This document shows positions 3,023-59,934 of a stretch of DNA of 64,000 nucleotides, in pieces (the stretch's first letter is position 1; each line of letters opens with the position of its first letter). The notes under the pieces are model-generated. The model was not told the DNA's origin. It worked only from the letters and a program-made list of their open reading frames with translations, and searched no databases. Position numbers and translations under genes: made by a program. Origin of the DNA: Minisyncoccota bacterium (GTDB lineage Bacteria > Patescibacteriota > Minisyncoccia > Phycocordibacterales > CALRHW01); NCBI GenBank assembly GCA_046350795.1, contig JAXLZT010000001.1, positions 80,468 through 144,467 on the forward strand, written 5' to 3'.

Positions 3023-3429
3023 GGGGATGATCGGCCTAGACAGGAGATCAAATCATATATGTGCAAAGTGGAGCTCTGGTGACTCCTAAATCCGCCAGAA
3101 ATTCTAAGTGCAAACGCCTTAGTTACAAAAGCAAAGATCGTCTCTCCATTTTTTGGACAGAAAGATTTTGCTTTCGCTTACGCTTTAGCCTAAGCGACGT
3201 CGCACGAGCCGGCTCCCGTAAAGCTCATTGCGGTGTTATATATTCGGGATAAAGTGTCAGGGCGTTTCGACTGACATTGAAAATAATTGAAACTAGGTAC
3301 TACAAGGTTTTGTTTGTTCCCTACTTGTAGTACTCAAATCGTTCGCAAGAACGAAGAAACATCCTAAACTTTGTAGACTCATATCTGATCATTTCTTGCA
3401 CCCGAGTTCGATTCTCGGCATCTCCACAA
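3023..3429 (+). ncRNA. ssrA: transfer-messenger RNA (tmRNA, one-piece)
   Basis: 5' GGGGAUGA pairs with 3' CAUCUCC to give a 7-bp acceptor stem plus discriminator A (3426); T-arm CCGAG-UUCGAUU-CUCGG at 3401-3419; internal tag ORF 3110-3193 reading ANALVTKAKIVSPFFGQKDFAFAYALA-stop (AYALA ending typical of tmRNA tags); adjacent to smpB. Confidence 0.8.
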
Positions 3430-3927: not shown

Positions 3928-3956
3928 CTGAACGAAGACCTGAAAGGATGGTCCAA

Positions 3957-4421
3957 ATGAAGGAGAACGACCTAAAAATCGGGAGAAAGGTGGAAGTGAC
4001 TTCCCTTTCCAACACACAGGATTGGGGAATTGATGACCAGTACCTCGCGGGGCGCAAGCTGGGGGCCGTAGGCACAGCGCACAAGGCTGCATTCGGCAGG
4101 TGCGCTGGTCTCTGGTACATCAGGGACAACGATGGGCGACTCTCCGTCTACCACGCAGACGAGCTGAGCATCCCTCGCGCGGAGCTCGAGCTAGAGCTTG
4201 CCGAAGCCAAGAACGCCATCGAGGAGTTGATCGCAAACGTGGATAGAGCGACCAATGAGGTGCTGTACCTGACCACTGCCCTGCACCATCTCTCCAATCT
4301 TCGGAAGGGCTGGTGGCCATTTGTCGCCAAGCACAGGATCGATGACATCTTCAAGGTACTCAAGGAGGCCCGCAGACTCTTTGAAGAAAGACTTGAAAAA
4401 AGCCGTGAGAAGCCGCAGTAA
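3957..4421 (+). CDS. hypothetical protein, high-GC, coiled-coil C-terminus
   Basis: long ORF with markedly higher GC and different codon usage than neighbours; second ATG preceded by GAAAGGA. Confidence 0.55.
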   Translation: MKENDLKIGRKVEVTSLSNTQDWGIDDQYLAGRKLGAVGTAHKAAFGRCAGLWYIRDNDGRLSVYHADELSIPRAELELELAEAKNAIEELIANVDRATNEVLYLTTALHHLSNLRKGWWPFVAKHRIDDIFKVLKEARRLFEERLEKSREKPQ

Positions 4422-4542
4422 GCGAGACTCACGGCTTTCTCATTTGTCTAAAGTTTTTTAATGGTAGATAATGTATGAGGCGTTCCCGTATCGCGCATTT
4501 ATGCGCAACAGAAGTTTGGGCAACTTACTGGGAGATCACATG

Positions 4543-4818
4543 GCTACGGTGGGAGACATCGTGGAGGTCGTGGACAAAATCAAGGAGGAAAACAAGAAAC
4601 TCAAGGGGTTGGACTTCACACGAGAGCAGTGTGAACTCATCAGCAAACTTGGAGACATCGTCTTTGAGCACATCGGACTGAGAGATGTTCGACGTCCATT
4701 CGCGCTCACCATTCAGGTCAACGCAGAAGCGGAGAGTGTCTTGCACACTCTCCGGGGGTTCTTGATCCAAACACACACAGAGACAAAGAGAAAGGAGCCT
4801 GAAGGCACACTCGTGTAG
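4543..4818 (+). CDS. hypothetical protein (high-GC)
   Basis: ORF 4471-4818; start ambiguous (MATVGDIV at 4543 plausible); followed by terminator. Confidence 0.4.
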   Translation, partial: ATVGDIVEVVDKIKEENKKLKGLDFTREQCELISKLGDIVFEHIGLRDVRRPFALTIQVNAEAESVLHTLRGFLIQTHTETKRKEPEGTLV

Positions 4819-5713: not shown

Positions 5714-5866
5714 CAGTCAATGTGGACAAGATTCTAGAAAATAAAAAATGGGTGCGGTCAACTCTACCCTATTTAAATTACGAGTGTATACTTTTATACG
5801 GCGTTCACAAACATTGTGCTGAGAAACAGACCCGGTCTTGCCACTTACAAAAGGAATGGTGACACA

Positions 5867-6205
5867 ATGTCCACCGAAGAAACACCGGAATACGATTTCG
5901 AGGGCGTAGCCCACAGGGTGTACCCAGGAACAAGGACTCGCAACCCCAACATTGCACCGATCCACGTCAGGGCATTCGGTACGTGCGGAGGAATCCAGCA
6001 TCCCATTCACGCTCAGCTGTTGGGTCTCGAAAGACCACAGTCGGCCACTGACCAACGCTCTCAGCCCTCTCTCTTTGGGGATGATGAAGAAAAGAGGTGC
6101 TGTGGCAATCCATCTTGTGCAGGATCTTGTCCGCACAAGAGAGAGGGTGCCGAGATCTCCGCTGACACCGACAGCGTCAACGTCACCTCTTCGGTGAAGC
6201 ACTAG
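5867..6205 (+). CDS. hypothetical Cys-rich protein (high-GC)
   Basis: ORF 5816-6205; MSTEETPEY start likely; CCGNPSCAGSCPH motif; followed by strong terminator. Confidence 0.45.
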   Translation: MSTEETPEYDFEGVAHRVYPGTRTRNPNIAPIHVRAFGTCGGIQHPIHAQLLGLERPQSATDQRSQPSLFGDDEEKRCCGNPSCAGSCPHKREGAEISADTDSVNVTSSVKH

Positions 6206-23938: not shown

Positions 23939-24298
23939 TTACATTATCTTTACGTCAATGTTTACACCCGATGGCAGACTCAAGTTGGTCAAAGATTCAA
24001 TAATCTTTGGACTTGGGTTTAAAATATCGATGAGTCTCTTGTGGATTCTCATTTCAAACTGTTCTCGTGCATTTTTGTACACGAACGCAGCTCTGTTTAC
24101 TGTGTACTTCTTTATCTCTGTTGGAAGAGGAATAGGACCAAGTACTTTTGCATCATATCTGATAGCAGTGTCGATGATTTGCTTTACAGAAATGTCTAGC
24201 ACTTTGTATTCATATGCTTGCACACGAATACGAAGCTTTTGAATGACATCTCCGTCTGCTTTCTTTGGCGATTTTTTTGTTGCTGTTGCTTTGGTCAT
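23939..24298 (-). CDS. rpsJ: 30S ribosomal protein S10 (uS10)
   Basis: KLRIRVQAYEYKVLD...GPIPLPT...FEMRIHKRLIDI. Confidence 0.92.
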   Translation of the reverse strand: MTKATATKKSPKKADGDVIQKLRIRVQAYEYKVLDISVKQIIDTAIRYDAKVLGPIPLPTEIKKYTVNRAAFVYKNAREQFEMRIHKRLIDILNPSPKIIESLTNLSLPSGVNIDVKIM

Positions 24299-24337: not shown

Positions 24338-25537
24338 CTATGCAATGATCTTTGTAACAACTCCCGCACCCACTGTCTTGCCTCCTTCTCGAATAGCAAA
24401 GTTTTGTTTTTCCTCAAGAGCAACTGGCGCTACAAGCTTTACCTTGAAAGTCACTGTATCTCCAGGCATAACCATTTCTACTCCCTCTTTTAGAGTCACA
24501 TCTCCTGTAACGTCTGTTGTACGGATGTAAAATTGTGGCTTGTATCCTGAGAAGAATGGAGTATGTCGTCCACCTTCTTCTTTCTTTAGAATGTAAACTT
24601 CTGCTTCGAAATCAGTGTGAGGAGTCACAGATCCTGGCTTTGCTAGCACCTGTCCTCGAGAGATATCTTCTTTCTTTAGACCTCGCACTAGAATACCGGC
24701 GTTGTCTCCAGCCATACCTTCTGATAGAGATTTGTTGAACATTTCAATACCAGTCACCACTGTCTTTGCAGCAGCCTTTAGACCAATAACCTCAACTTCT
24801 TCACCTACCTTGATGCGTCCTCGCTCAATACGACCTGTAACCACTGTTCCACGGCCTTCGATAGAGAAGATGTCTTCTACTGGCATAAGGAAAGGTTTTT
24901 CTAGATCACGCTCTGGGATTGGTACATATGTATCAAGAGCGTTTGCGAGCTCAAGAATCTTTTGTGCCCATTCATCTGAGTTGTCCTTTGACTCAAGAGC
25001 CTTTAGACCAGAACCTCGAATAATAGGAGTATTTGCTCCATCGTAACCATTCTTTGTAAGGAGCTCTCGCACCTCTTCTTCCACAAGGTCAATAAGCTCT
25101 TTATCAGGCACCATATCACACTTGTTTAGGAACACGAGGATTTTTGGCACACCGATTTGATGAGCTAGGAGTACGTGCTCACGAGTTTGTGGCATCACAC
25201 CGTCAGTAGCAGCTACCACGATAATAGCGCCGTCCATTTGAGCAGCACCAGTAATCATGTTTTTGATGTAGTCGGCATGTCCAGGAGCATCAATATGAGC
25301 ATAATGACGAGTAGGAGTCTCGTATTCATTGTGAGAAAGGGCAATAGTAATTCCACGAGCCTTTTCTTCAGGCGCCTTATCAATACCGTCGATACCGACG
25401 ATCTTTGCACTATAGCCATTACCCTGTCGTCCAAGGACTGAAAGGATAGCCGCTGTCAAAGTTGTTTTACCATGATCCACGTGTCCGATTGTTCCTACGT
25501 TCACGTGTGGTTTTGATCGATCAAATTCTCCTGCCAT
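24338..25537 (-). CDS. tuf: elongation factor Tu
   Basis: [29 protein letters not shown], full-length EF-Tu. Confidence 0.97.
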
Positions 25538-25680
25538 ATTTTTATAAAATTAATTTTTAATAAATAATTATTTTATGCCCTATTTTGCTAGTGTTTTTGT
25601 CGGATTTTTAAAAACCCAAAAACAAAAACGGCGCAAAAAGCGATAACGCTCATATTAACAAACGCCTTGCAATAGTCAAG

Positions 25681-26805
25681 TTATTTTTTACTACCGTCTG
25701 GATAGAAAAACTCTGGTATGGTTTTATGGAAATCTCGCTTTGATTCGTAAGTGAGGCATGCCCACAAAACAGGTCCTTTTTTATTTATACATGACTCAAT
25801 CATCTCCTTTACCTCCGGAAAATCATTACCATAATAATCAGTGTAAGGACTAATAGCTACGCGTTGTCCTTCAAAATCTAAAAAGTTGCCATGCTCATCT
25901 AAACCGCGCAAATACTGTGTGTATGGGTACGCTTTATATAATTTATCGCGTAGTGGCAAATGTGGTGGCACTTGGTCAAATGGCCCATCAAAATAATTGT
26001 TTGCCATGATACTGTAAGCATCAACCCCTATCAATATCTTCCTTCGTGTATCTTCATCGTTCCAATAAATAAATTTTGTCCTATCACCCAGCAAAAGATG
26101 CTCACCTAAATCAGTAAGTGTCTCTGTAATAGGATAATCTTCATTTACAACATAATAAAAACTCTTTGTCGTATTATTAAAAATTAAAAAAAATCTAATA
26201 GCGGACTCGTCTTGTATATTTGCCACAAACTCCTCATCTGGTAAGAGAGAAAAACTATTAGGTAAATTTGTGTCCTGTGATGGTAGATGGAAAAAGACCG
26301 TTTTGCCAGCATAAGATAACTTTACAAGTTTTTCAGAGATCATTTTTACATCTAAACCATCTTTTTGCGATAAAACAGTATACTGAAACTGTAGTGTATC
26401 CTCTGTATTAAAATATGCGAAAGACAATAAACCAGTCTCGATATCCGCAAACCTCAGATTACCAGCAAGTGATATTGATGGGATAGAAAAATAATAATAC
26501 CTTTCGGTTGGATATACGATAGCGTAATAAGGTAGTTTTTTCCAAACATAATCAAAAACATTCTTAGGATTAGACAAATCAAGCTCTTCAGAAAAGCTAC
26601 CGTTAAAAAAATTATTTAACCTAGCTGAATAATTTGATAGACCAAACAATAAGAAATCACTCTTTGAATAAGATTTAAAACTTCTAAATAGTTCTTCCTG
26701 AAATCGTTGATTGAACGAGATATTATTACTCTTAAATGGGACGTTGAAAGATAAAACAATAGTTAAAAAAATAACAACACCAAGCAATACTAGAGATTTT
26801 TTCAT
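25681..26805 (-). CDS. hypothetical signal-anchored extracytoplasmic protein (inserted between tuf and fusA)
   Basis: N-terminal hydrophobic anchor LVLLGVVIFLTIVL, Tyr/Phe-rich 374-aa body, no recognised motif. Confidence 0.6.
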   Translation of the reverse strand: MKKSLVLLGVVIFLTIVLSFNVPFKSNNISFNQRFQEELFRSFKSYSKSDFLLFGLSNYSARLNNFFNGSFSEELDLSNPKNVFDYVWKKLPYYAIVYPTERYYYFSIPSISLAGNLRFADIETGLLSFAYFNTEDTLQFQYTVLSQKDGLDVKMISEKLVKLSYAGKTVFFHLPSQDTNLPNSFSLLPDEEFVANIQDESAIRFFLIFNNTTKSFYYVVNEDYPITETLTDLGEHLLLGDRTKFIYWNDEDTRRKILIGVDAYSIMANNYFDGPFDQVPPHLPLRDKLYKAYPYTQYLRGLDEHGNFLDFEGQRVAISPYTDYYGNDFPEVKEMIESCINKKGPVLWACLTYESKRDFHKTIPEFFYPDGSKK

Positions 26806-26822
26806 AATTTAAACTAAAGCCT

Positions 26823-27854
26823 CTATCTGCTTGTACTAGGAGTAACTATCCCTGAAGCCGGCTTGCCTCCCAAAGAAACATTGTATAAATGATCAATCGA
26901 CATAGACGAACTTATAGTAGCACTGTGGTTTGGTGGCCATGTTTGACTATGCTGAAAGCTATGTGTCGGTGGCCAAGACTGACTAGTATTAACGGCGTGC
27001 TGAGAATAATCAGAACTAGTAGTCTTATCATGATTTGGTGGCCAAGAAGGACTAGTCATTGGCATGTGGCTTGGTGGCCAAGTGAGACTTGTATCTGTTT
27101 TATGATTTGGTGGCCACGGTAGTGGTAAAGGAGGATATTGATACTGACTACTCCATGCAGTCTTATGATTTGGTGGCCAATCCTTACTGTAATAAAGATT
27201 ATGTCCAGCCGGCCAAGTAGCACTTAATGCTGTATTATGAGAAACCCACGTATTACTAGGATACGCCTGATGACCAGTAGGCCACAAACTACTCATAGCG
27301 AAAGAGTGATTTTTTGGCCAATTTTTACTTAGATCTACACTGTGATTATTCTCGGTCCATGTTTTACTAAAAGAATACTCATGATTTGGCAACCAAGTTT
27401 TACTTAGAGTATAAGAATGGTTGAAAGGCATTGGCCAACCTTTACTTATAGAAAAACCGTGATTAGCTGGCCAAGATGAGCTGTCGGCAAGAGAGTGGTT
27501 GTTTTGATTCCAAACCTTACTTACACTTAAATTGTGATTTGGTGGCCATGTCCAGCTTGTATTTACAGAATGATTGGTCCAAGTAGTACTCACCTGAGAA
27601 CCATGACCTGGTGGCCATGTTCTGCTTATTGATTGAGAATGTTCTGGTTGGATTGTGCCTTCTGCAGACAGAGTGGTTTGTGAAGAAGGGCCACTTTTTA
27701 CAATAGTCGTTCCAGCTGAGACAGAAGCTAAGCTTTCGTAATTATCAGAAGAAAAAAAGCCCTCACCATCATCTCTAAATAGAAAGAATATGTTCCAAAT
27801 TATAAATAATAATAAAACAACATCAATAACGTTTCTTGTTTTTTTACTAACCAT
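26823..27854 (-). CDS. membrane-anchored protein composed of ~18 tandem ~12-aa W-P-P-N-H repeats
   Basis: N-terminal TM VIDVVLLLFIIWNIFFLF then repeats such as TWPPGHGSQVST / WPPNHNLSVSK / SWPANHGFSISK / TWLPNHEYSFSK / WPPNHKTDTSL / WPPTHSFQHSQT / WPPNHSATISS seen in translation. Confidence 0.7.
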   Translation of the reverse strand: MVSKKTRNVIDVVLLLFIIWNIFFLFRDDGEGFFSSDNYESLASVSAGTTIVKSGPSSQTTLSAEGTIQPEHSQSISRTWPPGHGSQVSTTWTNHSVNTSWTWPPNHNLSVSKVWNQNNHSLADSSSWPANHGFSISKGWPMPFNHSYTLSKTWLPNHEYSFSKTWTENNHSVDLSKNWPKNHSFAMSSLWPTGHQAYPSNTWVSHNTALSATWPAGHNLYYSKDWPPNHKTAWSSQYQYPPLPLPWPPNHKTDTSLTWPPSHMPMTSPSWPPNHDKTTSSDYSQHAVNTSQSWPPTHSFQHSQTWPPNHSATISSSMSIDHLYNVSLGGKPASGIVTPSTSR

Positions 27855-27871
27855 ATGCCCTAAGTATAGGA

Positions 27872-30041: not shown

Positions 30042-30566
30042 TTAGAAAAAGAGTCGGCTAAATACAAAGAAGAAGTAAGCCAAGACGATAACAAGAACGA
30101 TACCGCCAATAGAGAAATTCCTACCCTGCTTCTTGAACACTGTATTCCCTTCTCCCTGAAGACAAGTCATTACAATGATAAATGAGCCAAAAGCGAGTAC
30201 TGCTACTGAGCCAAGAGATTTGTAAAGCACATCCTTATCAGCAATAACATCCCAAATAGCAAGTACACCAAGAAGTGCCAAAATAGCAGCTGAAATTATT
30301 AGTATTACTACAGTTACGCTTCTTATTACTTGAAAAGCTGGATTTGCTACTACTGGCATAGTGATTTCTACAGCATTTTTACTTTGCATAAACTTTCCAG
30401 CGACCATTATTACTACAGCAACCGCCGCAAGAAGACCTAGAGTCTCAAAAGATTTTACGATTACATCGCTAGCAAAGAAATCCCAAATACCCAACACTGA
30501 GATGATAGAAAGCAAAGCTACCGCACAAATAAAAATAAGCCCAGCAACGTCTTGAAGTTTTTTCAT
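30042..30566 (-). CDS. hypothetical 4-TM membrane protein with internal two-fold duplication (inserted between rpsG and fusA)
   Basis: halves LLSIISVLGIWDFFASDVIVKSFETLGLLAAVAVVIMVAG and ILALLGVLAIWDVIADKDVLYKSLGSVAVLAFGSFIIVMT align. Confidence 0.55.
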   Translation of the reverse strand: MKKLQDVAGLIFICAVALLSIISVLGIWDFFASDVIVKSFETLGLLAAVAVVIMVAGKFMQSKNAVEITMPVVANPAFQVIRSVTVVILIISAAILALLGVLAIWDVIADKDVLYKSLGSVAVLAFGSFIIVMTCLQGEGNTVFKKQGRNFSIGGIVLVIVLAYFFFVFSRLFF

Positions 30567-30609: not shown

Positions 30610-31080
30610 TTACCATGCAAAATGAGCAAAAGCTTTGTTTGCTTCAGCCATCTTGTGTGTGTTTTCTCGCTTCTTCACAGCCTCACCTTCATTTTTACTT
30701 GCTGCGATTATTTCCTCAGCTAGTCTCATGTGCATAGGAGAGCCTTTTTTTGCACGAGCTGCCTCGATAATCCATTTCATAGATAGAGCTAGCTTTCTCT
30801 CTGGTCGTACTTCACGAGGAATTTGATAGTTGGCACCTCCCACTCGGCGAGATCGCACCTCCATCAAAGGGCCAGTATTTTTCAAAGCCATATCAAGAAC
30901 CTCAATAGGGTCTTCTGTTTTTTGCTTCTCTTTTATCTCTTGTAGAGCACCGTATACTATCTTTTGAGCAGTCTGCTTTTTGCCACTGTCCATCACATAG
31001 TTGATAAGCTTGCCCACTTTTGTGGAGTCGTATGTAAAGTCTGGACCTACTATATTTCTATTTTTTACTTTTCTTCGCAT
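30610..31080 (-). CDS. rpsG: 30S ribosomal protein S7 (uS7)
   Basis: MRRKVKNRNIVGPD..., GGANYQIPREVRPERKLAL..., AFAHFAW C-terminus. Confidence 0.93.
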   Translation of the reverse strand: MRRKVKNRNIVGPDFTYDSTKVGKLINYVMDSGKKQTAQKIVYGALQEIKEKQKTEDPIEVLDMALKNTGPLMEVRSRRVGGANYQIPREVRPERKLALSMKWIIEAARAKKGSPMHMRLAEEIIAASKNEGEAVKKRENTHKMAEANKAFAHFAW

Positions 31081-31097: not shown

Positions 31098-31508
31098 TTA
31101 TTTCTTAGGCTTTTTAGCTCCGTACACAGATCGACTTGTCATTCTGTCTGCAACGCCAGTAGCATCAAGTACTCCTCGCACGATAGTGTATCGTAGACCT
31201 ACGTCCTTTACACGTCCACCTCGTATCATTACCACTGAATGCTCTTGGAGATTGTGACCAATACCTGGGATGTATGCTGTGACTTCCATACCGTTTGTAA
31301 GGCGTACACGAGCGATTTTTCGGATAGCTGAGTTTGGCTTTTTAGGAGTCTTTGTTGTCACTTTTGTACATACACCTCGCTTGAAAGGAGCAGGATAGTA
31401 GACTGGTCGGTTTTTGATAACGTTAAATCCACGAGAAAGAGCGACAGCTTTTGACTTTCGCTTGTTTTTACTTCTCTTTCGTTTTACGAGCTGATTTATC
31501 GTTGACAT
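31098..31508 (-). CDS. rpsL: 30S ribosomal protein S12 (uS12)
   Basis: MSTINQLV...[45 protein letters not shown]; start at MSTINQ. Confidence 0.94.
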
Positions 31509-31610
31509 TTTGTCGATCGGCACAATTTGCCGAATAAAAAACCGCCTAGCGGAATACCACACACTTTAATATGTAACCGTAAAAAATGCAAGCGCCTTGG
31601 CGACTGCCGG

Positions 31611-32618: not shown

Positions 32619-33356
32619 TCAGCCCCTCTCTCCCAACAACTCTTGATCTATGGGAGAAAATTTCGCCCTCGCCACACTCCAGTAGCGTCCTGCCTCTGAG
32701 ACAAGACCAAACTTCAGAGCAGCGGCATACAGCGATGAAAACTCCCTCTTGCGGTAATAACGATGAAACGCGGCCCGACACTGCTCATCCATACTCAGCT
32801 TCTTGTCACCCAAAGAAAGTTCCGCCTTGAGCACCATGAAGGCCAAGTCAACGAGGTGGCGTTCGACCATTTCCCTGCCCAGAGACTCACCCAGATACTC
32901 GCTTCCAAGACCGAGCTCATCCCGAAGACTGTGGATGTTGCGCACGATCTCAACACCAGCAGAACGGAGGCGGTCAAAATGACGACGAAACTTGATGACA
33001 ATCTCAAGCAGGATGAAGGAGATTGCCATGGCGATGGTGTGGTATACCAACTGAAAATCTGGTTCAAAGGACCACACAACAATTCCCAAGGAGGACAAGG
33101 TCGTCCCGAACCCGAAGAGAATAATCAGCCACATCACAATCCCCAGAATGTGAAACAGTCGGTCCGCCCTCAACACACCGTCAACCGTTTGCTGAGTTTT
33201 CTCCCAGCCAATCCATCGATCGACAAGATCCCTCGACGCCAGATTCTGATTAAGAACAGATTGCAGTGTCATTACGACACTCCTTGTTGCCCAGATTGAA
33301 ATTGGTGGGGTCAGCCACATCCATTTGCAAGTGTCAGCAAGCAAAGGATACTTCAA
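32619..33356 (-). CDS. hypothetical high-GC protein with two central TM helices and helical C-terminal domain
   Basis: TM1 FHILGIVMWLIILFGFGTTL, TM2 HTIAMAISFILLEIVI; GC and codon usage differ from flanks; start ambiguous (33356/33320/33272). Confidence 0.5.
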   Translation of the reverse strand: MKYPLLADTCKWMWLTPPISIWATRSVVMTLQSVLNQNLASRDLVDRWIGWEKTQQTVDGVLRADRLFHILGIVMWLIILFGFGTTLSSLGIVVWSFEPDFQLVYHTIAMAISFILLEIVIKFRRHFDRLRSAGVEIVRNIHSLRDELGLGSEYLGESLGREMVERHLVDLAFMVLKAELSLGDKKLSMDEQCRAAFHRYYRKREFSSLYAAALKFGLVSEAGRYWSVARAKFSPIDQELLGERG

Positions 33357-39468: not shown

Positions 39469-39586
39469 ATAAAAGACGTATTAGACCAGACTTGACTTTT
39501 CTATAAAAAATGTTAGATTTTGCTGGTTCGTGGAAACAATTCACGACAAGCACATTCACACTTCAAATCTCACAGGAGACTGGACA

Positions 39587-40673
39587 CATGAAGAAGGTTC
39601 TTTTCGTCGCACAAGATGCGGCGCCAAGCAGGGCATTCCAGAGGTTTGCCCCTGCTTTGACTGAGGCTGGTTTTGGCGTTGAGCTCATTGTCGCTGACGG
39701 CAAGACCTTCCCGACAATCGACGGAGGCATGTCTCGAAAGGTGGGGTCTGCGGACCTACTTGTCATTGGCATGTCCTCACGACCTGAGTACGCAACGGAC
39801 GAATTGTTTGCCGCCAAGCAAGCAATCAAGTCTGGGGTGCCACTCGCCTGCTACGGTGACGTGCCAGGCTGTCATGTGCGTCACGCTTTCTGGGGGAATG
39901 ACATCTCCCGAGAGCTTTCGCTCTACCTCGGCTACAACCAAGCAGAGGAGGACGGCGTGCGGAAGTCTTTCCCAAACGCTCGTTTCCGTGCGATCGGCAA
40001 CCCACTTCGTGAGGAGATGGCATTTGCGCGATATACTCGCGAAGAGGTGCGTCTCCGTCTGGGTGTCACCCCAGATGACAAGGTCATTCTGGTGGGCGGT
40101 GGCAAGAGTCCATACAGCAACATGGTTCGTATCGGGCTCGTGCTCGAAACGATGAACATGTTGGATGGATTCCGCAAGACGCCCATCAAGGTGTTGCTCT
40201 CTCTGCATCCGGGAGACAAGGCGCCGGTCTCCAACTACGACGAAATCGTCAAGGAGAGTCCGGTGCCATTCCGGATTGCTGAGTCCATCAAGGGAAAGTT
40301 CGAGACCTCCGACATGATCGGGGGCGCCGATCTGGTCTTTTGCGGACTCACTGGTTCGACAGCCATCGAAGCCGCCTACAAGCGGATTCCGGTCATTCAG
40401 ACCGGTGGTGAGATCGAGCTTGTGAAGCTCTTCAAGGAAACCGGATCAAGGACTCCTGAAGCAGTGGCCGTTGGAGCATCATTGTTCTGCAACGGAGGAA
40501 ACTGCGGGCTCGATCTCGTAAGAGCAATGGATCTGATCTGGGGCACTGGTGTGGGAGCAAGCCTCATGAACGACCAAGCCTCCGCCTACCCGATCCCACA
40601 AAGGGTCGGGCAGGCAACGGAAAACGCTGTCAACGTAATCCGTGAATTCTTGGAAGTTCCGGCCATGGCCTGA
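39587..40673 (+). CDS. high-GC hypothetical protein, two Rossmann-like halves (GT-B glycosyltransferase / UDP-sugar epimerase-like)
   Basis: RBS AGGAGA before ATG 39587; KVLFVAQDAAPSRAFQRFAPAL N-terminus, KVILVGGGKSP and DLVFCGLTGSTAIEAAYKRIPVI in second half; about 60% GC. Confidence 0.5.
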
Positions 40674-59259: not shown

Positions 59260-59814
59260 TCAGTTGTTGTGTGGAGAGAAGCGACCTCCATAGCTGTCGT
59301 CCCCCGGGGACTTTCCCTTCTTCCACCAGTCAGCGGGGTCTTCTGTCTCCCTCTTGGGGCCAAACAGATTCTTGAGAAACACCCCCCAGAATCTTGCCTT
59401 GGCAGATCCAGTCTTCCTTGACTGGTGTTCTGCAACATCCGCGGCTGCCATCAGCCCAGCGGTAATCACATCCGCCAAGACGTCGTTGTCAGTGTTGATC
59501 TTCCTGGGTTCCTTCCACCGGAACGTCCAGGCCACCACAAGTCCCACCATCGCACACATCAAAGATTTGACGATCCACAACTGAGTTATGGAGAGGCCCG
59601 TGCTGGTCGGGACACCGTCGATCAGCATCGACATGCAGAAGCATGTCACGGCGACCGCCCTCACTGCATTGTTTGCCATCGTTCGCTTCCACCGAAGCGG
59701 AAGGACAAACGACACAAACAGAACGCCTGAAGAGATGAGAAACATCATAGCGGGAACGAAGGTCATGAATAGCTCCTTGTAAATCAAGTTTTTGACCACC
59801 GCATTGGTAGCCAT
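59260..59814 (-). CDS. hypothetical high-GC membrane protein
   Basis: 3 predicted TM helices, about 58% GC, start at MATNAVV (ORF-track start 59871). Confidence 0.45.
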   Translation of the reverse strand: MATNAVVKNLIYKELFMTFVPAMMFLISSGVLFVSFVLPLRWKRTMANNAVRAVAVTCFCMSMLIDGVPTSTGLSITQLWIVKSLMCAMVGLVVAWTFRWKEPRKINTDNDVLADVITAGLMAAADVAEHQSRKTGSAKARFWGVFLKNLFGPKRETEDPADWWKKGKSPGDDSYGGRFSPHNN

Positions 59815-59934
59815 ATTTACAAAACCCCCACTGATAAAGAATCTTGTAAATATGGCCACCTCACACAACAAATGTTAAAGAACCCTACTTTTATATTATA
59901 CACCTAAAATATCTACCTGTCAATAGACCATATT

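Follow-up and report, generated by a model that had tools for sequence, protein, structure and literature searches.

In the spore coat of Bacillus subtilis, the disordered Ser/Lys/His tandem-repeat protein CotG is encoded beside CotH, the enzyme that modifies it. In plant BURP-domain peptide cyclases, repeated core peptides are fused to the enzyme. The His/Trp octarepeats of the prion protein bind copper, and the scaffoldins of cohesin-dockerin systems are extracellular multivalent repeat proteins with partners encoded nearby. Here we describe two adjacent genes, ORF343 and ORF374, of a Minisyncoccota bacterium (a Candidatus Paceibacterota metagenome-assembled genome; GenBank assembly GCA_046350795.1, contig JAXLZT010000001.1, positions 80,468 to 144,467 of the forward strand; this stretch of 64,000 nucleotides (nt) is called the window below). 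They are located between fusA and tuf, the genes for the elongation factors EF-G and EF-Tu, and encode a membrane-anchored repeat protein and a globular protein of an uncharacterised family, respectively. Comparison of homologous loci indicates that they form one conserved module spanning bacteria and archaea, which was overlooked in the initial annotation of the window. The unexpected element of the locus is its cargo, namely an undescribed repeat motif and a protein without a detectable fold relative.

The module shares with CotG and CotH the arrangement of a disordered His/Ser-rich repeat protein next to a dedicated globular partner, and the arrays from Legionella and an alphaproteobacterium (SHDKxx and SHxKxG) are CotG-like in composition. 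However, ORF374 has no match to the CotH family in Pfam and no kinase among its fold matches, the module is predicted to be exported to a site where adenosine triphosphate (ATP) is unavailable, and its constant feature is H-x4-S. In common with the BURP cyclases, a domain can be fused to tandem short motifs that contain Trp, and fused and split versions coexist. ORF374, in contrast, contains neither a BURP domain nor conserved His/Cys metal ligands and is prokaryotic and membrane-tethered; the likeness is one of analogy. Although the scaffoldins are similar in their multivalency and in the proximity of the partner genes, ORF343 has no dockerin, its units are motifs of 12 residues in place of folded domains of the cohesin type, and ORF374 does not belong to the cohesins either. 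Like the prion octarepeats, the short repeats of ORF343 have one His and one Trp each and form a membrane-tethered array that is predicted to be disordered, but the sequences are unrelated, and ORF343 has a strict Ser at +5 relative to the His as well as a dedicated partner gene.

Gene coordinates are those of the open reading frame (ORF) list of the window, and intergenic gaps were read from the sequence. The pair consists of the following parts:

27855..27871, minus strand, spacer of 17 nt between fusA and ORF343
26823..27854, minus strand, ORF343, membrane-anchored repeat protein of 343 residues
27780..27830, minus strand, predicted N-terminal transmembrane (TM) anchor of ORF343, residues 9-25 (hydropathy and AlphaFold)
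26868..27659, minus strand, array of ORF343, about 21 repeats of 12 residues, [ST]-W-P-P-N-H-x4-S-x
26806..26822, minus strand, spacer of 17 nt between ORF343 and ORF374
25681..26805, minus strand, ORF374, predicted signal-anchored globular protein of an uncharacterised family

That the two genes are real is supported for ORF374 by 619 homologues and a very confident structure model, and for ORF343 by genes upstream of ORF374 homologues elsewhere that encode the same N-terminus and the same repeats. The fusA-tuf junction with the pair is not mis-assembled, because it recurs at 99.9% identity in L006 and L007, two Logan assemblies that are independent and derive from separate runs; they differ from the window at 17 of 11,929 nt and at 2 of 1,643 nt, respectively. 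Each protein has a single N-terminal hydrophobic segment that is preceded by Lys/Arg, and hydropathy analysis revealed no other TM segment. AlphaFold places helices at these segments (residues 9-25 of ORF343 and 2-21 of ORF374). This is in agreement with the prediction that both are signal-anchored, outward-facing proteins. The positive-inside rule, and lipobox- or signal-like N-termini in homologues, would also fit an export of both partners.

For the ORF374 family, one genome per species was scanned, which yielded 506 loci, and neighbourhoods were counted for the 80 best of them. The carriers belong to Patescibacteria, DPANN archaea, Phycisphaerales/Planctomycetota, Bdellovibrionota, Acidobacteriota, Alpha- and Gammaproteobacteria, and others, and include Legionella gresilensis and Rhizobium sp. 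LjRoot254; one archaeal contig with a family member also contains RFC genes. An ORF was scored as an array if a stretch of 150 residues contained 5 or more H-x4-S units, and it was counted as nearby when it was in the same ORF as the domain or within 1.5 kb; ORF343, with 21 units, is such an array. By this definition, 56 of the 80 loci have an H-x4-S array nearby or in the same ORF, and several of the exceptions are contigs that end early. Arrays were present in 73 of 1744 nearby ORFs versus 4 of 2583 distant ORFs (odds ratio 28, p = 1e-24). The repeat gene is located directly upstream on the same strand, or is fused to the domain, in the window, at L001 and L004, and at most of the loci L008-L066. 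The closest homologues of ORF374 (51-53% identity) are found between pheS and gyrB, and 10-13 nt upstream of them a protein of 280-296 residues is encoded, which shares with ORF343 both the repeats and the N-terminus (MSNKTRNIIDIVL...). The two parts can also be fused, in either order: the domain is followed by a long array of WPxxH units in P0121, and repeats precede the domain in P0067, P0240, and P0304. Furthermore, a C-terminal tail with H-x4-[ST] repeats, typically 3-4 in the examples that were read, is present in 44 of 73 ORF374 homologues; the Patescibacteria and DPANN proteins end in ...KRDFHKTIPEFFYPDGxKK, without a repeat tail. The pair, or a fusion of its two parts, is present in Patescibacteria, DPANN archaea, Phycisphaerae, Bdellovibrionota, and Proteobacteria. 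Neighbours other than the partner vary from locus to locus, and no further conserved operon partners were found in Phycisphaerae, an archaeon, and Patescibacteria.

The repeats themselves take several forms. L. gresilensis has 24 S-H-x-K-x-x hexamers, Rhizobium has S-W-H-x4 heptamers and 18-mers, one alphaproteobacterium has S-H-x-K-x-G units, and L061 has 16 H-x4-T units. Across all types only the His and a Ser/Thr at +5 are constant, and the unit length ranges from 6 to 18 residues. Genes that are adjacent in many phyla, and fusions of either order, thus link the domain to arrays with H-x4-S as the sole constant. Among the proteobacterial and cultured carriers, array proteins have up to 70 H-x4-S units (S-H-x-K-x-x or S-W-H-x4) and some are longer than 1000 residues; those beside the domain gene include L067:6910-7557 (L. 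gresilensis), L077:2507-5788 (Rhizobium sp. LjRoot254), L078:2267-5332, and L082:2122-5559.

ORF343 itself contains 22 His, 21 Trp, 60 Ser, and no Cys in its 343 residues. Its anchor is preceded by K4, K5, and R7 and followed by RDDGEG, and a topology with the N-terminus inside and the C-terminus outside is likely from this charge pattern. The His-to-His spacing is 11-14 residues in 18 of 21 intervals. When the units are aligned with His as position 0 (100%), Ser at +5 is equally strict (100%), and the preceding positions are occupied less regularly by W (62% at -4), P (62% at -3 and 48% at -2), and N (57% at -1). The same profile was obtained with 2465 units from homologues, in which position +5 is S in 91% and T in 9%. 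The possibility that the units contain an N-glycosylation sequon (N-H-S) was rejected, as Asn occupies -1 in just 57% of them and Ser occupies +1 in only 38%. In the AlphaFold model, which was based on an alignment of 26 sequences, the predicted local distance difference test score (pLDDT) is 44, the anchor helix is the sole confident part, and a one-turn helix follows each His. A self-folding beta-solenoid is not supported by this score and the absence of a fold, and the array is, as far as the model goes, probably a disordered string of short linear motifs.

The WPxNH family is rare, with 136 cluster representatives among 1.84 billion, and full-text literature searches for WPPNH, WPANH, and WPxNH returned irrelevant matches only. 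In 15 of 26 homologues of the repeat protein, a signal peptide and Dockerin_1/EF-hand modules replace the TM anchor, and one homologue has FG-GAP repeats. The Patescibacteria proteins have a TM anchor where others have dockerin/EF-hand, and Pfam analysis detected neither Dockerin_1 nor EF-hand modules in ORF343. Neither ORF343 nor ORF374 has a match above threshold in Pfam-A, NCBIfam, PADLOC, or PHROGs; the scans gave sub-threshold noise only, e.g., DUF3470 (E = 0.43) and Phr_nterm (E = 0.058, on the signal segment).

ORF374 consists of an anchor helix (residues 2-21) and a domain (residues ~30-374), and it was modelled by AlphaFold with a pLDDT of 95.8 and a predicted template modelling score of 0.92. 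The model comprises the anchor helix, three helices, a beta region with 14 strands (94-262), and a loop-rich C-terminal part, in which most of the invariant residues are located. An alignment of 68 bacterial and archaeal sequences, with 31-53% identity to ORF374, has 17 invariant columns (P99, Y103, Y105, G115, N116, E191, L258, D273, G274, F276, D277, Q278, Y293, P294, R315, Y321, and Y324) and 33 columns conserved at 90% or more. Together, this strongly conserved set is rich in D, E, R, N, Q, and Y and includes N116, E191, D273, D277, Q278, R315, and eight Tyr. No sequence relative was found in the PDB, a Foldseek search of the model against the PDB gave nothing at E <= 0.001, with template modelling scores of at most 0.15, and there was no viral fold match. 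As judged from the model and the alignment, ORF374 is a folded and strongly constrained protein without a recognisable fold relative. A Bacteroidetes metagenome-assembled genome carries two tandem paralogues of the ORF374 family (L074:4580-7023), with no detectable H-x4-S array nearby.

The order of genes on the minus strand is rpsL, rpsG, ORF174, fusA, ORF343, ORF374, tuf, and rpsJ, followed by the S10 operon. The features that surround the pair are:

31098..31508, minus strand, rpsL (S12), first gene of the str operon
30610..31080, minus strand, rpsG (S7)
30042..30566, minus strand, ORF174, multi-TM protein of 174 residues
27872..30016, minus strand, fusA (EF-G), Pfam match
25652..25679, minus strand, promoter-like site of tuf, TTGACT-16 nt-TAATAT
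25538..25651, minus strand, AT-rich leader of tuf
24338..25537, minus strand, tuf (EF-Tu), Pfam match, head of the tuf-S10-spc gene string
23939..24298, minus strand, rpsJ

The start of rpsL in the ORF list (GTG at 31562) is probably over-extended, and the ATG at 31508 gives the usual 136 residues. The contiguity of rpsL, rpsG, fusA, and tuf is co-directional, but it is broken by three extra genes. The initial annotation had reported two same-strand genes for exported proteins with short gaps between fusA and tuf and a third membrane-protein gene between rpsG and fusA, and both observations were borne out. The gaps are 43 nt (rpsG/ORF174), 25 nt (ORF174/fusA), 17 nt (fusA/ORF343), 17 nt (ORF343/ORF374), and 143 nt (ORF374/tuf), and the distance from fusA to tuf is 2.3 kb.

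ORF174 is predicted to have 4-5 TM segments and is internally duplicated, with the motif G-x-W-D-x-x-x-x-D-V-x-x-K-S present twice. It has no match above threshold in Pfam, NCBIfam, PADLOC, or PHROGs. All of its 91 homologues are from Parcubacteria/Paceibacterota, and in 21 loci the gene separates rpsG from fusA, whereas in 6 it follows fusA, within the fusA-tuf junction. By this distribution, ORF174 represents a Paceibacteria-specific family of membrane proteins that is habitually placed among the ribosomal genes of the str operon, as a lineage-wide trait.

Two further observations concern the window outside the str region. A transfer-messenger RNA gene at 3023-3429 on the plus strand (RF00023, 117.8 bits) is the sole Rfam match in the window. 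Six ORFs without a Pfam match (3948-4421, 4471-4818, and 5816-6205, plus strand; 32619-33356, minus strand; 39510-40673, plus strand; 59260-59871, minus strand) are GC-rich, with a GC content of 0.51-0.56 and a GC content at third codon positions (GC3) of 0.58-0.70, compared to 40% GC and a mean GC3 of 0.33 for the window. The str operon is preceded by genes for L28 and an M50 peptidase, and one of the six ORFs is located just past these. They may be recent acquisitions or non-coding GC-rich elements.

The fusA-tuf junction had been regarded as universally conserved, a view that does not hold for this lineage. The str operons of relatives were fetched via the ORF174 family, and rpsL, rpsG, ORF174, fusA, tuf, rpsJ, and rplC were mapped by tblastn, which gave readable junctions for nine relatives and the window, ten in total. 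Nine of the ten hold 1.2-6.6 kb of mutually unrelated genes, and only L116 is canonical. The distances from fusA to tuf in the relatives are:

L116, 164 nt
L102, 1.24 kb
L110, 1.28 kb
L142, 1.42 kb
L108, 2.08 kb
L096, 2.1 kb
L152, 2.15 kb
contig of P0153, 2.6 kb
L111, 6.6 kb

The cargo of these junctions includes toxin-antitoxin pairs (RelB/YafQ-like and HicAB-like), a prepilin-like protein, small coiled-coil proteins, ORF174, and, in one relative, a secreted protein of 1464 residues together with a multi-TM protein and a glycosyltransferase-like ORF. Relatives of ORF343 or ORF374 are present in none of the nine tblastn-mapped junctions, and none of the 80 module loci is near fusA or tuf. Synteny, which had been proposed as the check on the novelty of the insertion, therefore gives a divided answer: the same insertion was not found again, but some insertion at this site is the rule. 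An occupied junction is, from these comparisons, ordinary for Paceibacteria, the cargo ORF343-ORF374 is unique to this genome among those sampled, and the junction is very likely an insertion hotspot at an operon boundary. At L090 (10180-12309), fusA appears to be interrupted by a split or a frameshift, with three pieces in tblastn and two called genes of 103 and 566 residues, and either an error in the assembly or a true disruption may be the cause; the str region of this locus also contains extra genes, e.g., one for a phosphoglucomutase-like protein of 418 residues.

In Gammaproteobacteria, small multigene insertions between concatenated translation operons have been described for some lineages, as well as terminator-promoter overlaps between translation operons (PMC6735719). 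Gene order and strand are alike in the window, and in both cases the operons are arranged head to tail. However, in the window the break is between fusA and tuf, tuf is grouped with S10 and has its own conserved promoter-like site, an extra membrane-protein gene is regular in the str operon of the lineage, and the occupied junction is the rule in Paceibacteria and not the exception.

The promoter-like site of tuf has a -35 hexamer that starts 1 nt past the ORF374 stop codon, and a TG precedes the -10 hexamer (extended -10). The identical hexamers and spacing (TTGACT-16-TAATAT) are found in the canonical L116, 24 nt after the fusA stop codon. At the equivalent position upstream of tuf, TTGAC-type sites are present in L102, L108, L110, and L111 and TTGCAT-type sites in L152, L142, and L096, and in L124 only a -10 hexamer and the downstream element are visible. 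This downstream element, A.CGC, is invariant 7-9 nt past the -10 hexamer in all ten tuf upstream sequences (window and nine relatives), and in most of the ten leaders it is followed by a 4-5 bp ACGC/GCGU hairpin and then a U-rich run. The aligned leaders include 25538-25679 of the window (minus strand), L116:6470-6655, L102:5950-6174, and L152:10400-10587. The site and the leader are kept in the ten sequences irrespective of the gene that lies upstream. The leader has no match to an Rfam family; possible roles are those of a start-site element or an attenuator, or it could mark an inter-operon overlap of terminator and promoter. A strong intrinsic terminator or a structured element in the 143-nt ORF374/tuf spacer was considered and rejected, as the scan found no terminator on that strand, and the folding stability of this spacer is no better than that of shuffled sequences (z = -0.75).

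From its conserved upstream region, tuf appears to head its own transcription unit (tuf-S10-...) across the lineage, and the str operon appears to end after fusA. The scan detected neither promoter-like nor terminator-like sites in the two 17-nt spacers; therefore, the simplest reading is that ORF343 and ORF374 are transcribed together with fusA, as a 3' extension of the str mRNA. Co-transcription with the translation-factor genes, as predicted in the initial annotation, thus agrees with the sequence on the fusA side, but is not supported on the side of tuf with its own conserved promoter-like site. The pair would therefore extend the str operon at its 3' end and not be wedged into an indivisible unit. 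The very high expression that had been expected for the pair does not follow from a position at an operon boundary, and ORF343 and ORF374 have a lower GC3 (0.27-0.28) than fusA and tuf (0.33-0.34).

The explanation that we favour overall, with chances slightly better than even, is that ORF343-ORF374 is a promoter-less module at a permissive boundary between str and tuf, and that ORF374 recognises, and likely modifies or processes, the repeats of ORF343. The str operon of Paceibacteria, rpsL-rpsG-[ORF174]-fusA, would end after fusA, tuf would start a new unit from its own promoter, and the interval of ~24 nt from the fusA stop codon to the tuf promoter would be a permissive site that is filled differently by different lineages. 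The pair would most likely be expressed by read-through from the str promoter, and the expression of tuf would be independent of it. ORF343 would tether a disordered array of ~21 W-P-P-N-H-x4-S motifs to the membrane. ORF374 would recognise the minimal H-x4-S unit in a sequon-like way, and its most likely role would be that of an enzyme that modifies or cleaves each repeat, leading to a mature surface structure. Recognition of the H-x4-S unit by the ORF374 domain is quite probable in view of the conserved pairing. A catalytic action on the repeats, be it modification or processing, is a more tentative proposal, which we rate somewhat short of an even chance. It is favoured because one domain gene serves 8-70 motifs, because the recognition would be sequon-like, because many charged residues are invariant, and because similar enzyme-substrate fusions exist elsewhere (BURP cyclases and CotG/CotH, which are analogies and not homologues).

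Several points weigh against this explanation. No catalytic motif, cofactor site, or fold relative that would point to a chemistry was found in ORF374, and it has no invariant His or Cys. An extracytoplasmic enzyme is without access to ATP or S-adenosylmethionine. The invariant Tyr/Phe residues would suit a non-catalytic binder of proline-rich peptides equally well. The low pLDDT of the array could stem from the thin alignment of 26 sequences and not from true disorder. Distant family members (L062-L087) are mostly without a detectable array nearby; therefore, the domain can work without one, and in these members it may have array-independent roles. The evidence for read-through from fusA and for use of the tuf promoter consists of consensus matches and conservation, and the promoter scan found 20 sites overall versus 20.6 expected in shuffled sequence.

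The main rival to a catalytic ORF374 is a non-catalytic binder or scaffold, which we regard as unlikely, though worthy of serious consideration. ORF374 would be an adaptor that docks on the WPPNH motifs of a multivalent scaffold, namely the array, and the short repeat tails of homologues would let the domains chain into a surface coat or adhesive layer, similar to cohesin-dockerin scaffolds. The set of invariant residues is rich in aromatic residues (Y103, Y105, Y293, Y321, Y324, and F276), as in binders of Pro/Trp peptides. The predicted disorder of the array, the missing cofactor or catalytic signature in ORF374, and the Dockerin_1/EF-hand modules in 15 of 26 repeat-protein homologues, which are typical of extracellular assemblies, are also in agreement with a scaffold. 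However, a single domain gene for 8 to 70 motifs is not what a scaffold would suggest, a unit with two constant positions and a length of 6-18 residues is closer to an enzyme sequon than to an interface for docking, and the domain has unusually many invariant charged residues.

A metal-handling array is improbable. In this reading, Cu, Zn, or Ni would be chelated on the cell surface by the regularly spaced His along with Trp, Asn/Asp, and Ser, much as in the prion octarepeats or His-rich metallochaperones, and ORF374 would be the partner that loads, unloads, or uses the metal. The 22 His of ORF343 at distances of ~12 residues, its 21 Trp and lack of Cys, and the His that never varies in any repeat type would fit this idea, and ORF374 has invariant acidic residues from which a metal site could be built. 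Yet the Ser/Thr at +5 is equally strict without an obvious role in chelation, there is no match to a known metal-binding family, and no transporter or metal regulator is conserved nearby.

Still less probable is a functional role of the position, i.e., that the pair was recruited to couple the output of a surface component to the synthesis of ribosomes and elongation factors. The orientation along with fusA, the 17-nt spacers, and the lack of a detected promoter of its own are compatible with such a coupling, and in the closest relatives the pair again trails translation genes (rpsB-tsf...pheS). Nevertheless, none of the other module loci among the 80 best shares the position, the neighbours differ everywhere, the GC3 of the pair is below that of fusA and tuf, and the toxin-antitoxin, pilin-like, and glycosyltransferase genes in the junctions of relatives point to a permissive site and not to a selected coupling.

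The GC content is 0.40 for ORF343 and 0.33 for ORF374 (window mean 0.407, standard deviation 0.049), the GC3 of both is within 0.6 standard deviations of the window mean (0.33, standard deviation 0.10), and the 36-nt repeat units of ORF343 are only 60-75% identical at the DNA level. A recent horizontal insertion by a mobile element, for which the patchy distribution of the ORF374 family across phyla and the bacterial-archaeal divide and the GC content of ORF374, the lowest of the neighbourhood, could be cited, is very improbable: no integrase or transposase, target-site duplication, flanking direct or terminal inverted repeats, or tRNA was found at the site, the composition is native-like, the repeats have diverged, and the nearest ORF374 homologue is only 52-53% identical. 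Thus, a mobile-element insertion was rejected on the flanking-repeat check and the composition, and the sequence evidence argues against a recent insertion of the pair.

The results have two implications. Operon junctions that are considered "universal" need a lineage-specific baseline, and an insertion between fusA and tuf is unremarkable in itself in Paceibacteria. Many uncharacterised families exist in these lineages, and the pairing of motif and domain makes this one unusually testable, since it names the exact peptide and the exact protein for testing. The genomes of Patescibacteria and DPANN are tiny, and these organisms rely on contact of their cell surface with hosts. A conserved surface module is retained in these tiny, host-dependent genomes; therefore, ORF343-ORF374 is a reasonable candidate for a role in the envelope or in attachment. 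A more far-reaching possibility, which we consider speculative and rather unlikely, is that the ORF374 family represents a new fold class of extracytoplasmic enzymes with an H-x4-S "sequon", which covalently modify or process long tandem-repeat surface proteins. If this were true, the system would be common to ultra-small episymbionts (Patescibacteria and DPANN), predators (Bdellovibrionota), Phycisphaerae, and some Proteobacteria, and it would represent a previously unrecognised route of cell-surface polymer maturation.

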